Positions 2,931 to 40,098 of a stretch of DNA of 64,000 nt are shown one piece after another. The notes under the pieces were generated by a model. That model did not search any database and was not told the origin of the DNA. It was given only the letters and a program-made list of their open reading frames with translations. The DNA comes from Bacillota bacterium (lineage in GTDB: Bacteria; Bacillota_I; Bacilli_A; RF39; UBA660). The stretch is from positions 77,809-141,808 of the forward strand of contig JAEWOE010000002.1 of NCBI GenBank assembly GCA_023460995.1, read 5' to 3'. A program made the translations under genes and the position numbers. The first letter of the stretch is position 1. Each line of letters starts with the position of its first letter.

Positions 2931-3371
2931 ATGAGACAAACGATATTAGATGATATTATAAAAGCAATGAAGGAAAAAGATAAAGATACTTTATCAGTAC
3001 TTCGTATGGTAAAAGGTGCAATGCAATTAGAAGAAATAAATGTTAAGCATGAACTTAATGATGAAGAAATGACAAGAATTATATCTAAACAAATTAAAAC
3101 AAGAAAAGATTCTATAGTTGAGTTTGAAAAAGGAAATAGACAAGATCTTGTTGATGCTGTAAACTCTGAAATTACAATACTTGAAAAATATATGCCTGAA
3201 CAAATGAGTGAAGAAGATATATTAAAAGTAATAGATGAAGTATTCAGTAAAGTTAATCCAACTGGTCCTTCTGAAATGGGGAAAATTATGGGAATGATTT
3301 CTCCACTAGTAAAAGGAAAAGCAGATATGGGGCTTGTAAATAAATTGATAAAAGAAAGATTATCAAATTAA
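2931..3371 (+). CDS. yqeY: GatB/YqeY domain protein
   Basis: Conserved YqeY motifs (LSVLRMVKGA..., EYMPEQMSEEDI, MGKIMGMISPLVKGKADMGLVNKLIKERL). Canonical rpsU-yqeY pairing. Confidence 0.85.
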   Translation: MRQTILDDIIKAMKEKDKDTLSVLRMVKGAMQLEEINVKHELNDEEMTRIISKQIKTRKDSIVEFEKGNRQDLVDAVNSEITILEKYMPEQMSEEDILKVIDEVFSKVNPTGPSEMGKIMGMISPLVKGKADMGLVNKLIKERLSN

Positions 3372-3437
3372 AATATGTTTATACATATTTTTTTTAATTT
3401 TTTTAATGTATAATGTAAGAATAGGGTAGGGATAATT

Positions 3438-4673
3438 ATGGGCGAGCTATATGCGTTTAAACAAGATAAAAATAAATATGAATCACAAATAGGTATAGAA
3501 GAAAATGTTTTTAATAAACAAAAATTAATGAAGGAATATCAAGATAAAACTAAAAGGTATTTAGGGACGGCAATTAGTATTATCAATAAAAACTTTAATA
3601 TTAATTATTCTATGAATAAGGAAGCTGTAGGTATGACTGCAACTTTTCAGAAGATAAATACAATTGTTAGAAAAACAGATCAAGAGATCTCAATTGAAAT
3701 GGAACAATTAAGTAATCAAATACCAAATTTAGCGGTAAGCGATGATATCAAAGAAACAATTGAACTAGCTATAGAGATAGTTACAATTTATTGTACTAAC
3801 GGGGTTGAAAATTCAGCGGTTGCTTCAACTGCCGATATAAATGTTTTTGAAGATAATAAAGTAATAAATGAAACAAGGCTGAATCAAAATTCTGAAAGTG
3901 TTACCGAAAAACAAGATTCAAATATAGTTCAGGAAATTAATGAAAAAGTACCACCTTTAAAAAAAGACAGTCCCTTTATTTCATATAAAGTTAAACTAGG
4001 ATTATTAATAATACCAGTTGTATCATTATTTATGACTTTTGTGTTATTTATTATCCTAAAAGTTCTATCTAAATTGCCATTTTTCTCAAATATAATTGGT
4101 AGTGGAACTTCAAGTATGTTATATGTAATATTTTTCTATGGTTTATTATTCTTATTTTCATGGTTAGTAACCAGCTTTATCTCATCATTTATAAGTGGCA
4201 GAACAAATAATAAAATATCCTTTATGATATTGCCTTTTTCTTTGCTTATTTTATTAATAATTGTTTCAAAAATAGTTATAGATTATGTAACAGTAAAACA
4301 ATTACTAGATGTAGTATCATTATTATATATTAATGTTTATTATGCATGTGCCATTATAATACTATATACGTTTATGCCATTATTTTATATTTTATCAGTA
4401 TTCCAAAAGCATACCAAAACGAGTATAGTTGAATTTATTGATATAAGTATAATAATATATGTAGGTATTTTACCTGGAATAAAACATATATTAGAAGTCC
4501 TTAAAATAGATCAGTTTAAAGGTGTATTTAATGCATTATATAATTATCCAAAACAAAAAATTGTTTTTATTATATTAATAATTATTTGTATTTTATCTAA
4601 TATAATTTATTCTTTTATTAAATATAAAAAAGGTAGTAAAAGTAGTGAAAATATAGAAAGTAGTGAAGCATAA
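3438..4673 (+). CDS. hypothetical membrane protein (N-terminal soluble/coiled-coil region plus 6 or more TM helices)
   Basis: Long ORF with own extended -10 (TGTATAAT) and GGGTAGGGA RBS. Hydrophobic C-terminal two-thirds. Confidence 0.5.
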   Translation: MGELYAFKQDKNKYESQIGIEENVFNKQKLMKEYQDKTKRYLGTAISIINKNFNINYSMNKEAVGMTATFQKINTIVRKTDQEISIEMEQLSNQIPNLAVSDDIKETIELAIEIVTIYCTNGVENSAVASTADINVFEDNKVINETRLNQNSESVTEKQDSNIVQEINEKVPPLKKDSPFISYKVKLGLLIIPVVSLFMTFVLFIILKVLSKLPFFSNIIGSGTSSMLYVIFFYGLLFLFSWLVTSFISSFISGRTNNKISFMILPFSLLILLIIVSKIVIDYVTVKQLLDVVSLLYINVYYACAIIILYTFMPLFYILSVFQKHTKTSIVEFIDISIIIYVGILPGIKHILEVLKIDQFKGVFNALYNYPKQKIVFIILIIICILSNIIYSFIKYKKGSKSSENIESSEA

Positions 4674-4736: not shown

Positions 4737-4755
4737 GTAATTGTAGGTGATAAAT

Positions 4756-5430
4756 ATGGAAGTTAAAAATCCATTATATAAAAATCAGGGTATACATGCT
4801 ATTTCTGCTATATTTACGGTAGACAAAGGAATTACTAAAGTACTACTGATAAAAAGGAATAATGAACCATTTAAAGGTATGTGGGCTTTAGTAGGCGGAG
4901 CTCTTTATAATAATGAAACTTTAGATCAAGGTATAAAAAGAGAGATAGAAGAGAAAATTGGTATTAATATTAAAAATATTGAAATGTTTGATATTTTTAG
5001 TAAGATCGATAGATCACCAGTGATGCGAATGATCGCTGTAGGATATATAGGAATTGTTGATTCATCAAAAGTTGAAGTTGTTAAAAAAACTGTAAAAACT
5101 AGTGATGCTGACTGGGTTCCAATTGATAAAATTGGAAAACTTGCTTATGACCATAATGAAATAATTAGTAAAGGAATAGAAGTTCTAAAGCAAAAAATAG
5201 TCAATACAGATATTTTGAAAAGTTTATATCCAGAAGGATTTACACTTCCAGAAATTCAAAAAACTTATGAAGCTATTTTGAGTAAGGAACTAGATAGAAG
5301 AAATTTTAGAAAGAAAATGCTTAGCTTAGATTTAATTTATGATACTGGTTTAGCAAAGAAGTTTGAGGGAACTAAACCAGCAAAAATATATAAGTTTAAA
5401 GAAAATAGAAAAAGTAAAAATGTATTTTAA
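4756..5430 (+). CDS. NUDIX hydrolase with NrtR-like C-terminal winged-helix domain (ADP-ribose pyrophosphatase / Nudix-related regulator family)
   Basis: Intact Nudix box GGALYNNETLDQGIKREIEEKIG. C-terminal FTLPEIQKTYEAIL...RRNFRKKM resembles NrtR DNA-binding domain. True start is ATG 4756 after AGGTGA (the track start 4747 is a GTG inside the RBS). Confidence 0.65.
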   Translation: MEVKNPLYKNQGIHAISAIFTVDKGITKVLLIKRNNEPFKGMWALVGGALYNNETLDQGIKREIEEKIGINIKNIEMFDIFSKIDRSPVMRMIAVGYIGIVDSSKVEVVKKTVKTSDADWVPIDKIGKLAYDHNEIISKGIEVLKQKIVNTDILKSLYPEGFTLPEIQKTYEAILSKELDRRNFRKKMLSLDLIYDTGLAKKFEGTKPAKIYKFKENRKSKNVF

Positions 5431-5447
5431 TACATTTTTATAAACTT
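5418..5447 (+). terminator. rho-independent terminator after Nudix gene
   Basis: AAAAATGTATT/AATACATTTTT hairpin overlapping the stop codon, followed by a T-rich run. Confidence 0.5.
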
Positions 5448-5450
5448 ATA

Positions 5451-5520
5451 ACAAGTGTATTATACTACACATAATAGTAATACGCTTTTATATAGATTTA
5501 ACAAGTGTATCAAATTACAC
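5451..5520 (+). promoter_or_regulatory. two ACAAGTGTAT operator-like boxes (5451-5470 palindromic GTGTATTATACTACAC; 5501-5520 GTGTA-N6-TACAC)
   Basis: Direct repeat of ACAAGTGTAT 50 nt apart, each with an inverted-repeat partner TACAC. Same motif occurs at 4710. Confidence 0.45.
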
Positions 5521-5538
5521 TTAAAGAAAGGAAAGTAT

Positions 5539-7131: not shown

Positions 7132-8268
7132 ATGGGAAAAATAGTAGGAAAAATCGTTTTAACAGGAGGGCCTTGTGCTGGAAAGACAAGTGCTCTTACA
7201 AAAATTGAAGAAGAGCTAACAGAAAAAGGCTTCAAAGTATTTATTGTTAGTGAAAGTGCAACTGAATTAATAAAAGGTGGGATTAAACCATTTGGTAGAA
7301 TGCCAATTGATTTAATCAAATTTCAAAGTTTAATATTAAAGTATCAATATGAAAAAGAAAAAATATATGAAGAGGCAGCAAAAAGTTTAGGTGATGATGA
7401 GAAATGTATTATCATTCATGATAGAGGTTTACTTGATAATAAAGCGTATATCAACCAACAAATTTTTAATCAGTTACTTAATGAACAAGGCTTAAAAGAA
7501 TTAGAAATAATGGATAACTACAATATGGTAATTCATTTAGTAACTGCGGCTGACGGAGCAGAGGAGGCCTATACTCTAGGAAATAATGTCGCTAGAACAG
7601 AGACTATCGAAGAGGCAAAAGAACTAGATAATAGAACTGTAAATGCTTGGGCTGGACATCCAAACTTAAGAATTATAGGTAATGAAAAAGATTTTGCCGC
7701 TAAACTTCAAAATGTTATTGATGAAATAAATAACCTAATTGGAGAACCTGTTTCAATTAGAAAACAAAGAAAATTTTTAATTGATTTAGAAAATTCTGAT
7801 TTATCATTTTTAACAGAAGATAATTCAACTGCTATTCATATAGAACAAACATATATAAATGATAATTCTGATGTTGAAACAAGACTTAGAAAAAGAACTT
7901 ATAATGATCAAAGCTGCTACTATTTAACAGTTCAAGTAAAAGAAAAAGACGGTAAATCAACTGTTTTAACAAATAGAAAGATTACTGAAAAAGAGTATAC
8001 TAAACAGTTATCAACTGCCGTTTCAACTACTTCGGTATCCAAAGATAGATATTCATTTTCAAAAAATAAACAGTATTTTAGATTAGATATATTTGATGCA
8101 ATGAAAAAGTATGCTTTACTTGAAATAGACCCTACTTATGAAAATTCTAGAATTAAACTACCTAAGGAAATTAAAGTTATAGAAGATGTTACTAATAGTC
8201 CTTATTACGACAATCATGTAATATCAGAAATGGTTACTCACGAAAAAAATAAAGTTTTAAATAAATAA
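7132..8268 (+). CDS. P-loop ATPase/kinase (AAA_28, NadR-RNK-like) fused to C-terminal CYTH-like domain
   Basis: Walker A GGPCAGKTS, IIHDRGLLDNKAY Walker B-like region. C-terminal segment with RKQRKFL...ETRLRKR...LLEIDPTYE resembles triphosphate-tunnel (CYTH) fold. Confidence 0.55.
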   Translation: MGKIVGKIVLTGGPCAGKTSALTKIEEELTEKGFKVFIVSESATELIKGGIKPFGRMPIDLIKFQSLILKYQYEKEKIYEEAAKSLGDDEKCIIIHDRGLLDNKAYINQQIFNQLLNEQGLKELEIMDNYNMVIHLVTAADGAEEAYTLGNNVARTETIEEAKELDNRTVNAWAGHPNLRIIGNEKDFAAKLQNVIDEINNLIGEPVSIRKQRKFLIDLENSDLSFLTEDNSTAIHIEQTYINDNSDVETRLRKRTYNDQSCYYLTVQVKEKDGKSTVLTNRKITEKEYTKQLSTAVSTTSVSKDRYSFSKNKQYFRLDIFDAMKKYALLEIDPTYENSRIKLPKEIKVIEDVTNSPYYDNHVISEMVTHEKNKVLNK

Positions 8269-8426
8269 AATCAATAAAAAAGCCAAAAAAATGTTGTTAT
8301 TCATATTTATTATGATATAATATTAATGGCTTTTTTAATACACACGACAATGATTTTTATGCCTAGTGCCTTATGGTGGTGTAAAAAGTTGATTTGTTCG
8401 GAGGAAAAACAAAAGGAGGAAATAAA

Positions 8427-9599
8427 ATGACAGTTGTTTCAATGAATTATTTATTAGAAGCAGGCGTTCACTTTGGTCATCAGACTAAAAGATGGAACCC
8501 AAAAATGAAAGAGTATATCTTTACTTCAAGAGATGATATTTATATTATCGATTTACAAAAAACTGCTAAAAAGATTGAAGAGGCTTATGCAGCTTTAAAT
8601 GCTATAGCAGCTAATGGTGGTAAAGTATTATTCGTAGGAACAAAAAAACAAGCAGTAGAGGCTGCTAAAGAAGAAGCTACTCGTTCAAATTCATTCTATG
8701 TTACAGAAAGATGGTTAGGTGGAACTTTAACAAACTTCAAAACAATTAGAAGCAGAGTTAAAAGATTAGAAGAAATCGAAAAAATGGAAAAAGATGGTAC
8801 TTTTGAAGTACTACCTAAAAAAGAAGTTATCGGTCTAAGAAAAGAGTATGCAAAACTTGATACTTTATTATCAGGAATAAGAGGAATGTATAAATTACCT
8901 AGTGCTATGGTTATAGTTGATCCTTCAAAAGAAGATATCGCTATTAAGGAAGCTAGAAAATTAAATATTCCAGTATTTGGTATCGTAGATACAAATTGTG
9001 ATCCTGATATGGTTGATTATGTAATCCCAGGTAATGATGATGCAATTAGAGCAGTTAAATTAATTTTAGGTGTTTTAGCTAATGCTATCGTTGAAGCTAA
9101 CGGTGGACAATTAGTAAATTATGTATCTGCTGATGAAAAACAACCAACTGATATTATGCAAAAAGCATTAGAAACAGTTAAGAGAAAAGAAGACAGACCA
9201 AGAAGATTTGATAATAATAGATCAAATGATAACAGATCAAATGACAGAAGAGATAACAACAGACCATTTAATAGATATAACAACAATAGACCTAATGATA
9301 ATAGATCAAATGATAGTAGACCTAGCGATAATAGATCGAATGATTATAGATCAAATGATAGAAGAGAATTTAGAAGAGAAGATAGACCAGTAGTAGAAGC
9401 TGTAAAACCTATAGTAGAAGAAAAAGTTGCTGTTAAGGAAGTTGCTCAAGTAGTAGCTCCAGTAGAAGTAAAAAAAGCCGTAGTTAAAGAAGATATGACT
9501 ACTAAAACAGTTGCAGAACTTCGTGATTTAGCAAAAGCTAAAGATGTAAAAGGTTATTCAACAATGAAAAAAGCAGAATTAATTGATGCTTTAAAATAA
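8427..9599 (+). CDS. rpsB: 30S ribosomal protein S2 with long C-terminal extension (N/D/R/S-rich linker plus Rho_N-like domain)
   Basis: [19 protein letters not shown]2 signature. GGAGGA RBS then ATG 8427. About 140 extra C-terminal residues ending [30 protein letters not shown]. Confidence 0.9.
9205..9370 (+). repeat. imperfect tandem repeat (about 15 nt unit AATAGATCAAATGAT) inside rpsB 3' region
   Basis: Repeated GATAATAGATCAAATGA(T/C)A units encode NDNRSND-type peptide repeats. Confidence 0.7.
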
Positions 9600-9608
9600 A
9601 TTATTTAT

Positions 9609-9638
9609 AGATGATTGAGAAATCATCTTTAATTTTAA
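9609..9638 (+). terminator. intergenic hairpin (partial terminator/attenuator) between rpsB and tsf
   Basis: AGATGATT-GAGA-AATCATCT stem-loop followed by TTAATTTT. Confidence 0.45.
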
Positions 9639-9653
9639 AAGGAGAAAAAATTT

Positions 9654-10529
9654 ATGATAAGTGCTAGTTTAGTAAAAGAATTAAGAGAATCTACAGGTGC
9701 TGGAATGCTTGATTGCAAAAAAGCACTAGAAGCTACTAATGGAGACATGGATGCTGCTGTAGATTGGCTAAGAGAAAAAGGTATTTCAAAAGCTGCTAAA
9801 AAAGCTGATCGTATTGCTGCTGAAGGTTTAGCTGAAATAAAAATTTCTGGAAATATTGCTGCTATAGTAGAAGTAAATTCAGAAACAGATTTTGTTGCTA
9901 AGAATGAAGAATTTACTTCAATGGTTGATGCAATTCTTACTACAATTATTGCAAATACTCCTGAAACAGTAGAAGATGTACTTGCTTTAACTTATGAAAG
10001 TGGAACAATTAATGATTTAATCGTTAATAAAACAGCTAAAATTGGAGAAAAATTATCATTAAGAAGATTCGAAAGAATTGAAAAAAATGATAATCAAGTT
10101 TTTGGTTCATACATTCATATGGGTGGAAGAATTGCTGTTTTAACATTAATTGAAAATGCTAGTGAAGAAGTTGCTAAAGATGTTTCTATGCATTCTGCAG
10201 CAATGAGACCTGCATATGTTAAATCTTCTGATGTTCCAACTGATGTACTTGACAAAGAAAAAGAAATAATGAAAGAACAATTACTAAATGAAGGTAAACC
10301 TGCTGATAGAATCGAAGGTATCCTAGTTGGTAAAGTTAAAAAATATTATGAAGATGTTTGTCTTGAAAATCAAATCTTTATTAAAGCAGAAAATAAAGAA
10401 ACAGTTGCTGAGTTCGTAGCTAATAATGGTGGAACAATTTCTACTATGGTTCGTTATGAAGTTGGTGAAGGAATGGAAAAAAGAGAAGAAAATTTTGCAG
10501 AAGAAGTTGCAAAACAAATTAACGGATAA
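9654..10529 (+). CDS. tsf: elongation factor Ts
   Basis: LVKELRESTGAGMLDCKKAL UBA-like N-terminus and conserved EF-Ts core. Confidence 0.95.
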   Translation: MISASLVKELRESTGAGMLDCKKALEATNGDMDAAVDWLREKGISKAAKKADRIAAEGLAEIKISGNIAAIVEVNSETDFVAKNEEFTSMVDAILTTIIANTPETVEDVLALTYESGTINDLIVNKTAKIGEKLSLRRFERIEKNDNQVFGSYIHMGGRIAVLTLIENASEEVAKDVSMHSAAMRPAYVKSSDVPTDVLDKEKEIMKEQLLNEGKPADRIEGILVGKVKKYYEDVCLENQIFIKAENKETVAEFVANNGGTISTMVRYEVGEGMEKREENFAEEVAKQING

Positions 10530-39795: not shown

Positions 39796-40098
39796 ATGAT
39801 TAAAGTAAATGTTATTAGAAAAGCAGCTAAAATTGATAAAATTATTATAAGTGGGCATGCTATGTATGCTGACTATGGTAAAGATATCGTTTGTGCTTCT
39901 GTATCTAGTATTGTTATTACATCAATTAATGCTATATTAAAAATTAATAAAGATGCAATAACTTATCATCAAGGCGATGATTTAGAAATAACTGTAAAGT
40001 TGCATAATGATGTAACTGAAAAATTGCTTGAGAACATGTTAGATTTATTAACTGAATTATCAACGCAGTACAAAAAAAATATAAATATTAATATATAG
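39796..40098 (+). CDS. prp: ribosomal-processing cysteine protease Prp (YsxB)
   Basis: [21 protein letters not shown] motif (His/Cys dyad), located between rplU and rpmA. Confidence 0.85.

Follow-up and report, generated by a model that had tools for sequence, protein, structure and literature searches.

On the 30S subunit, ribosomal protein uS2 is found between head and body at the solvent side, beside the docking site of bS1 and the region of the mRNA exit and anti-Shine-Dalgarno sequence, and its C-terminus points outward; a chimera in which S1 was fused to the C-terminus of S2 (4toi) has reportedly been crystallised. Small modules of the HeH, SAP and Rho_N types typically contact nucleic-acid backbones, and the SAP, HeH and LEM families belong mostly to eukaryotic chromatin proteins. 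The helix bundle at the N-terminus of Rho is positively charged and assists the binding and loading of RNA (PMC11347177). Here we describe an S2 gene, rpsB, that joins the two themes. It is located in a 64,000-nucleotide stretch of DNA from a Bacillota bacterium (assembly GCA_023460995.1, contig JAEWOE010000002.1, positions 77,809 to 141,808 of the forward strand), hereafter called the window, whose own numbering is used for all coordinates except those given for loci of relatives. The gene (8427..9599, + strand; 390 amino acids plus the stop codon) was recognised by its matches to S2 hidden Markov models (HMMs) and by an identical protein, P0001, in public assemblies; its product consists of a canonical S2 core, a long linker of low complexity, and a C-terminal module predicted to fold as a Rho_N-type helix hairpin.

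Results

The S2 core and the start of the extension

The first part of the protein was assigned to bacterial S2 by two families of models; Pfam Ribosomal_S2 (PF00318) matched residues 9-223 with 328 bits (cut-off 26.1), and TIGR01011 (rpsB_bact) gave 339.2 bits (cut-off 76.3) over profile positions 1-223 of 225. The top match among solved structures was the B. subtilis-type uS2 chain 3j9w_AB, at 339 bits, and the core so defined is encoded at 8451..9095 (+). Solved Firmicute S2 chains aligned with the query only as far as residue ~234-251 (S. aureus-type chains to 251), and no solved S2 from any organism searched aligned past query residue ~261. Because the Firmicute chains stop at ~234-251, the ~130-140 residues that follow constitute an extra, lineage-specific extension. 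The extension is entered through a conserved post-core segment (residues 226-260; 9102..9206, +), which carries the motif KRKEDRPRR and a helix, modelled by AlphaFold at residues 240-250 with a low predicted local distance difference test (pLDDT) score.

The C-terminal module

The last 33 residues of the protein (residues 358-390; 9498..9596, +) form a Rho_N/HeH (SAP-like) module according to Pfam, AlphaFold and Foldseek. The Rho_N model, PF07498, scored 35.7 bits against the whole protein and 40.8 bits against the tail alone, both above its gathering score of 24.9, and the match spanned HMM positions 3-34 of 43. SAP (PF02037) reached 20.9 against a gathering score of 23.9, and HeH/LEM (PF12949) 17.3 against 28.9; since the SAP and HeH models thus match the tail too, although below threshold, 'Rho_N' serves here as a label for a fold. 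When modelled by AlphaFold with 40 homologs, the tail was predicted to fold as a helix, an extended loop and a second helix (the helices span tail-model residues 38-47 and 58-65), at pLDDT values of 88-91. Compared with the PDB by Foldseek, this model gave as its top match 1a8v_B, the helix bundle at the N-terminus of E. coli Rho (root-mean-square deviation 0.9 Å over 34 residues, probability 0.90), and the next matches were the SAP domains of FAN1, Ku70 and MKL1.

A reading of this DNA made from the sequence alone, without database searches (the sequence-only reading), had divided the protein into a canonical core of about 250 residues and about 140 further residues, and had taken the terminal segment for a Rho_N helix-hairpin. 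The division is borne out by the core models and the alignment of solved chains, and the hairpin by an HMM score above the Pfam threshold, with which the AlphaFold and Foldseek results agree.

In an alignment of 40 sequences, column conservation was 0.83-1.0 in the core, ~0.8 in the post-core helix and KRKEDR region, and 0.5-0.8 in the linker, where 13-81% of positions were gaps; it rose again to 0.89-0.92 in the tail. Invariant residues of the tail included four hydrophobic positions (V362, L365, L385 and L389), two positions of the loop (G376 and T379), and five basic residues (R366, K370, K375, K381 and K382). A tail conserved like the S2 core, behind a linker that evolves freely, indicates an appendage that is kept under selection.

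The linker and its repeats

The linker that separates the post-core segment from the module has two halves. The first (residues 261-320; 9207..9386, +) is an R/N/D/S-rich stretch of low complexity encoded by imperfect 15-nt tandem repeats, which translate to pentapeptides resembling N-D-N-R-S; the second (residues 321-357; 9387..9497, +) contains a PVVExxK unit, duplicated in some strains, and is by composition a V/E/K polyampholyte. AlphaFold, supplied with 40 homologs, gave pLDDT values below 50 from residue ~252 to residue ~357, and the linker is therefore predicted to be disordered.

Tandem Repeats Finder resolved two arrays of period 15 in the DNA, one at 9214-9244 (2.1 copies, 93% matches) and one at 9285-9360 (5.1 copies, 75% matches, consensus AATAGATCAAATGAT); an alternative reading with period 30 spans 9269-9336, and weaker 12-nt periodicities were detected at 9357-9386 and 9440-9465. 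Just nine tandem-repeat rows in the window score 50 or more, and three of them fall in the rpsB linker. Across 90 distinct linkers, the length ranged from 55 to 110 residues, the 108 residues of this window being near the maximum; the composition was mostly K, E, R, N, V and D, and the net charge had a median of +7, of which +6 resided in the first half, and a minimum of 0.

Strains whose proteins are 91-95% identical were found to differ by exact repeat units, with in-frame gains or losses of whole 5-residue (15-nt) units at two sites: an NRSND unit near residue 266 is present or absent, and one additional SRPSD unit was found in the sequence of this window alone. One or two additional 7-residue units, PVVE[TA]A[KR], formed a further class of variation. 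Differences of whole units in frame are as expected from slippage in 15-nt and 21-nt repeats. Both the 15-nt repeat, whose quoted unit is the consensus of the second array, and the tendency to vary in length had been proposed in the sequence-only reading, and both were recovered here, with the repeat copy number of this particular strain resting on one assembly. The linker may thus be used as a strain-level marker of length, and it is also a likely source of assembly errors.

Occurrence in related genomes

The identical 390-residue protein was present on 4 contigs, and the representative of its cluster is held by NCBI, Logan and ENA. Both PF00318 and PF07498 were detected in 117 of the 120 best homologs, which are 63-100% identical; the three proteins without PF07498 were shorter (296-327 residues), and at least two of them were visibly truncated. 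Relatives were also surveyed at one genome per GTDB species, which returned 80 loci. In 78 of these, a single uninterrupted S2 open reading frame (ORF) ended in the tail, which was always situated at the extreme C-terminus. One of the two exceptions (L017) is a contig that ends within the gene; in the other (L020), S2 (3001-4161) terminates not in Rho_N, but in a tail rich in lysine, valine and alanine, with a weak likeness to histone H1/HC2 (19.1 bits for Pfam HC2, below the cut-off of 40). Two database entries that might pass for giant S2 variants, P0006 (524 residues) and P0013 (452 residues), were set aside; a stretch of the S2 core is duplicated before the tail in each, and they are probably mis-assemblies.

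The genomes that bear the tail are metagenome-assembled genomes from gut or rumen, filed as Bacilli, Tenericutes, Mycoplasmatota, 'Acholeplasma sp. CAG:878', Ca. Fimihabitans and Ca. Coprosoma, names which we take to belong to the GTDB order RF39. Genes of the ylbD/ylbE type, mreC/mreD and a gene for a glucosaminidase are also found in the window, and they suggest a Firmicute with a cell wall and not a mycoplasma. The rpsB described here is a genuine uS2 gene of an uncultured gut Bacilli/'Tenericutes' bacterium, and it is probably essential. The suggestion in the sequence-only reading that a Rho_N module on S2 is 'not standard' is correct with respect to characterised ribosomes, but does not hold within the lineage, where tailed S2 is the rule.

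The same tail on L20 and on other proteins

Directly upstream of rpsB, 23 of the 80 related loci have rplT, and the L20 protein encoded there ends in a K/E-rich linker followed by Rho_N (for example L076 2530-3108, L029 2164-2709, L044 2530-3108 and L059 2476-3108). These fused proteins scored 158-162 bits for the L20 core and 42-46 bits for Rho_N (Pfam). The L20 ORFs of L032, L041, L045 and L065 carry lysine-rich (K/A/V/T/P) tails without a Rho_N module, and these, like the S2 tail of L020, look like an alternative polycationic appendage. Within the 64-kb window, no second tail-bearing gene was found when a tail profile was compared with the six-frame translation, and motif scans gave no match to rho, rplT or rpsA.

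The two tails were compared in the 23 genomes that carry both fusions. Mean identity between S2 and L20 tails was 0.70 within the same genome and 0.58 between different genomes, and 0 of 20,000 random re-pairings gave a mean as high as that of the real pairs, in a permutation that ignores genome relatedness. Variants of the tail (...EGYTTMKKAELVEALNK, ...SVTGLKKAEII... and ...ATTGMKKADII...) were often common to both proteins of one genome, a likeness seen at L040, L044, L047, L053, L069-L072 and L076. The coding DNA of paired tails differs synonymously; in L072, 25 of 29 residues were identical, and 11 codons were synonymously different. Six genomes had mismatched S2 and L20 tail types. The tails of S2 and L20 appear to undergo concerted evolution, an effect that we regard as real but partial because genome relatedness was uncorrected and six genomes are mismatched; it could stem from repeated gene conversion with purifying selection afterwards, or else from co-adaptation of the two tails to one ligand.

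When 1.84 billion representative proteins were searched with the tail alone, 579 matches were obtained at E <= 0.001. Among the best 150 of these 579, 149 matched Rho_N (Pfam); their partner domains were very varied, and many were proteins with multiple copies of Rho_N. The same best 150 also held fragments with N-terminal parts like S2, L20, S16 and Jag/KhpB. Five short entries (P0155, P0167, P0191, P0208 and P0220) combine a near-identical tail with N-terminal pieces like S16, Jag/KhpB and possibly IF2, Ffh and ScpA; of these carriers, S16, Jag_N and SRP54_N alone were confirmed by Pfam, with one member each. The extra carriers could be true fusion partners or assembly chimeras formed via the shared tail sequence, and they amount to a hint only, because many of the entries are short, lie at contig edges or are possibly chimeric.

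Genomic context

The longest ORF form of rpsB (8394-9599) begins with TTG at 8394. This start was dropped in favour of ATG at 8427, which is preceded by a ribosome-binding site, AAAGGAGG, read from the sequence at 8412-8419 (+), 7 nt before the ATG, and which gives an exact match (100% identity) to the public protein P0001. Upstream lies a promoter-like site (8294..8321, +) with TTGTTA, a 16-nt spacer and TATAAT, the -10 hexamer being preceded by TG as in an extended -10 element; with 10 of 12 consensus matches it was the best site in the scanned region, and as a match to consensus alone it is a candidate. A leader of ~100 nt (8322-8426) separates it from the rpsB start. Downstream, tsf (EF-Ts, PF00889) occupies 9654-10529 and begins 55 nt after rpsB, in the conserved rpsB-tsf order. 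Neither the leader of rpsB nor the spacer before tsf contains an RNA element recognised by Rfam, whether the whole window is compared at gathering threshold or 8230-9700 at E <= 1. A hairpin of AT-rich sequence, AGATGATT-GAGA-AATCATCT, with TTTAATTTT after it, was observed at 9609-9637, downstream of the rpsB stop codon and ahead of tsf; it could act as a weak terminator or attenuator, and a consensus terminator scan did not call it because its stem has too few G-C pairs. Two ORFs that overlap rpsB, at 9208-9393 (+) and 9119-9286 (-), were dismissed as by-products of the repeat.

Elsewhere in the window, the sole Rfam match at gathering threshold was an L21 leader (RF00559, 39416-39485, 51 bits), which precedes rplU, an ORF of 100 residues (39796-40098) and rpmA. 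The ribosomal proteins L21 (98 residues), L27 (100 residues) and S21 are of ordinary length, and L21 and L27 are without tails. The strongest tandem repeat of the window is a 50-nt duplication at 5428-5524 (1.9 copies, Tandem Repeats Finder score 124), situated at or just past the end of the ORF at 4747-5427.

Discussion

A proposed mobile module on the ribosome surface

We favour, with moderate confidence, the reading that the C-terminal module of this S2 acts as a flexible tether that, from the solvent face of the 30S subunit, binds nucleic acid without sequence specificity. A disordered linker of ~100 residues with net positive charge would allow the module to range over much of the 30S surface and further out, as a 'fishing line' that would bind polyanions irrespective of their sequence. 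Its likeliest targets would be mRNA leaders or nascent transcripts, with AT-rich DNA as a possible further one, and contacts would be made through the linker's first half, which is basic, and residues R366, K370, K375, K381 and K382. Binding of nucleic acid is what we infer from the fold family, these five invariant residues and the basic linker; polyanion binding more generally is pointed to by the same features together with the lysine-rich replacement tails. That the tail recurs on RNA-associated proteins (L20, and in fragmentary entries S16 and Jag) also supports a polyanion-directed role.

Several observations weigh against a nucleic-acid tether. The net charge of the module is only +3, and HeH/SAP modules can mediate contacts between proteins too. 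No solved ribosome among those searched contains a tailed S2, and a sequence search of the PDB with the 66-residue tail gave no match at E <= 1. The Foldseek E-values, at ~1.5 and above, are not significant alone, a weakness that follows from the tiny size of the domain; the ranking of the matches agrees with the HMM result. The tail of L20 would be placed on the far side of the 50S subunit, which speaks against a function peculiar to the mRNA exit and for a general one at the ribosome surface. Lastly, the similarity of S2 and L20 tails within a genome could point to a common protein partner.

This last point leads to the main rival of the nucleic-acid tether, a handle for protein docking, in which the HeH modules of S2 (and of L20 in relatives) would recruit a common partner to the ribosome surface; we consider it possible, yet a good deal short of likely. 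Candidates for the partner are RNA polymerase or NusA, in transcription-translation coupling, a hibernation or dimerisation factor, and an assembly factor. Co-adaptation to one partner would give the pattern that was found, in which two tails from one genome are closer to each other than re-paired tails are, lineage-specific types such as VTGLKKAEII are often common to both proteins, and the likeness persists despite synonymous differences in the DNA. The same pattern would, however, arise if rplT and rpsB, which are neighbours, underwent gene conversion from time to time; the mismatched tail types in six genomes do not fit a common partner, the partner itself is purely hypothetical, and the permutation took no account of relatedness. 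The lysine-rich tails that replace the module in some relatives suit binding by charge better than docking.

It is also conceivable, but in our view improbable, that the whole extension has grown out by repeat slippage in an AT-rich genome as largely neutral, tolerated low-complexity sequence without a specific function, perhaps serving as an entropic bristle or an aid to solubility. The linker behaves as such an outgrowth would, being hypervariable in length and sequence and shifting by repeat units, and other C-terminal extensions of S2 exist, such as the NF051451 'sunset domain variant', which is unmatched here. The module does not behave in this way; its conservation equals that of the S2 core among proteins 63-95% identical, it invariably stands last in the protein, and it was kept in 78 of 80 species. 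A charge that never fell below 0, around a median of +7, likewise speaks against neutrality of the linker as a whole. For the module a neutral origin is thus unlikely; for the exact repeats that the linker contains, it is plausible.

A role related to Rho-dependent termination, in which the tail would imitate the Rho N-terminus, compete with it, or take the place of a lost Rho, is very improbable. It draws on the Rho N-terminal helix bundle being the best match in both sequence and fold, and on the absence of Rho from all Mycoplasmatota and 30% of Bacillota surveyed (PMC11347177). Against it, a 33-residue hairpin alone is present, without an OB/CSD RNA-binding domain or an ATPase domain in the protein, and for this reason Rho-like termination is unlikely; modules of the Rho_N type occur on many unrelated proteins, as in 149 of the best 150 of the 579 matches, and the SAP and HeH models match the tail as well, below threshold.

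An artefact, whether a frameshift or assembly error fusing S2 to a small downstream Rho_N gene (the condition under which the sequence-only reading would have fallen) or a collapsed or expanded repeat, has a negligible chance of being the explanation: short-read assemblies do err at repeats, and some database entries are clearly chimeric or truncated (duplicated cores in P0006 and P0013, broken tails in P0125-P0127), but the identical protein on 4 contigs with a representative from three sources, the one-ORF architecture in 78 of 80 species genomes and 117 of 120 homologs, strain differences that are all in-frame multiples of the repeat unit, and tsf at its normal distance downstream exclude a fusion.

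With a nucleic-acid tether retained as the preferred reading for S2, a broader proposal can be formulated, which is speculative and which we hold to be rather unlikely: that ribosomes of RF39-like Bacilli bear identical HeH/Rho_N 'hooks' on tethers, on uS2, bL20 and possibly bS16 or other RNA-associated proteins, which evolve concertedly and form an undescribed system of the ribosome surface. If this were true, the hooks would link ribosomes with nascent transcripts, the nucleoid or a common partner, and they could compensate for a lost ribosome-bound S1 or for lost coupling of the Rho/NusG type in reduced genomes. Tails of S2 and L20 that act together would represent a new way to connect ribosomes with transcripts, DNA or a partner. 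The uS2 appendage on its own would place a mobile module for binding nucleic acid or a partner beside the mRNA exit and the S1 site. Ribosomal proteins are usually treated as invariant, and this appendage occurs in an abundant uncultured group of gut bacteria.

Comparison with known systems

Full-text literature searches returned no paper on a fusion of S2 or L20 with Rho_N. The S2-Rho_N architecture is visible in precomputed Pfam annotations, in sources that still name the protein plain '30S ribosomal protein S2', and NCBIfam leaves the domain of the L20 counterpart unnamed ('unknown').

Relative to bacterial uS2 as known from the B. subtilis and S. aureus 70S ribosomes, the protein described here is the same over residues 1 to ~250, a full-length S2 whose gene is followed by tsf; it differs in continuing for ~130-140 residues with a predicted disordered linker and a predicted folded module. 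Two described families also have lineage-specific C-terminal extensions of S2, NF051451 ('30S_S2_sunset') and NF008966. Both matched through the core alone (positions 1-225; 290 against a cut-off of 710 and 268 against 526, respectively) and their extensions were unmatched, and identity with the 'sunset' variant or with the long S2 of NF008966 was therefore ruled out.

The module resembles the N-terminal bundle of Rho in its above-threshold HMM score and in a predicted fold that superposes at 0.9 Å over 34 residues, whereas its position is C-terminal rather than N-terminal, and Rho's RNA-binding and ATPase domains are missing; the NCBIfam Rho models matched over no more than about their first 38 positions and far short of their cut-offs (TIGR00767, profile positions 4-38, 14.9 bits with a cut-off of 509), and neither OB/CSD nor RecA-type ATPase domains were detected in the protein. 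With SAP, HeH and LEM modules, such as the SAP domains of FAN1, Ku70 and MKL1, it has in common a two-helix fold class, at HMM scores below gathering, and Ku70 likewise carries a terminal module on a flexible linker.

A described relative is NF011109/PRK14537, the 'L20/unknown domain fusion protein', to whose C-terminal domain (positions 166-224) the S2 tail aligned weakly, with E = 2.4e-5. Its carrier is L20 rather than S2, in the other subunit, and the S2 protein as a whole gave 24.1 bits, far from the cut-off of 187. The tailed L20 of the relatives corresponds to NF011109/PRK14537, and the S2 described here bears the same appendage on another ribosomal protein. Taken together, the comparisons place the tail of this S2 as a lineage-specific ribosomal-protein extension built from a known small domain.

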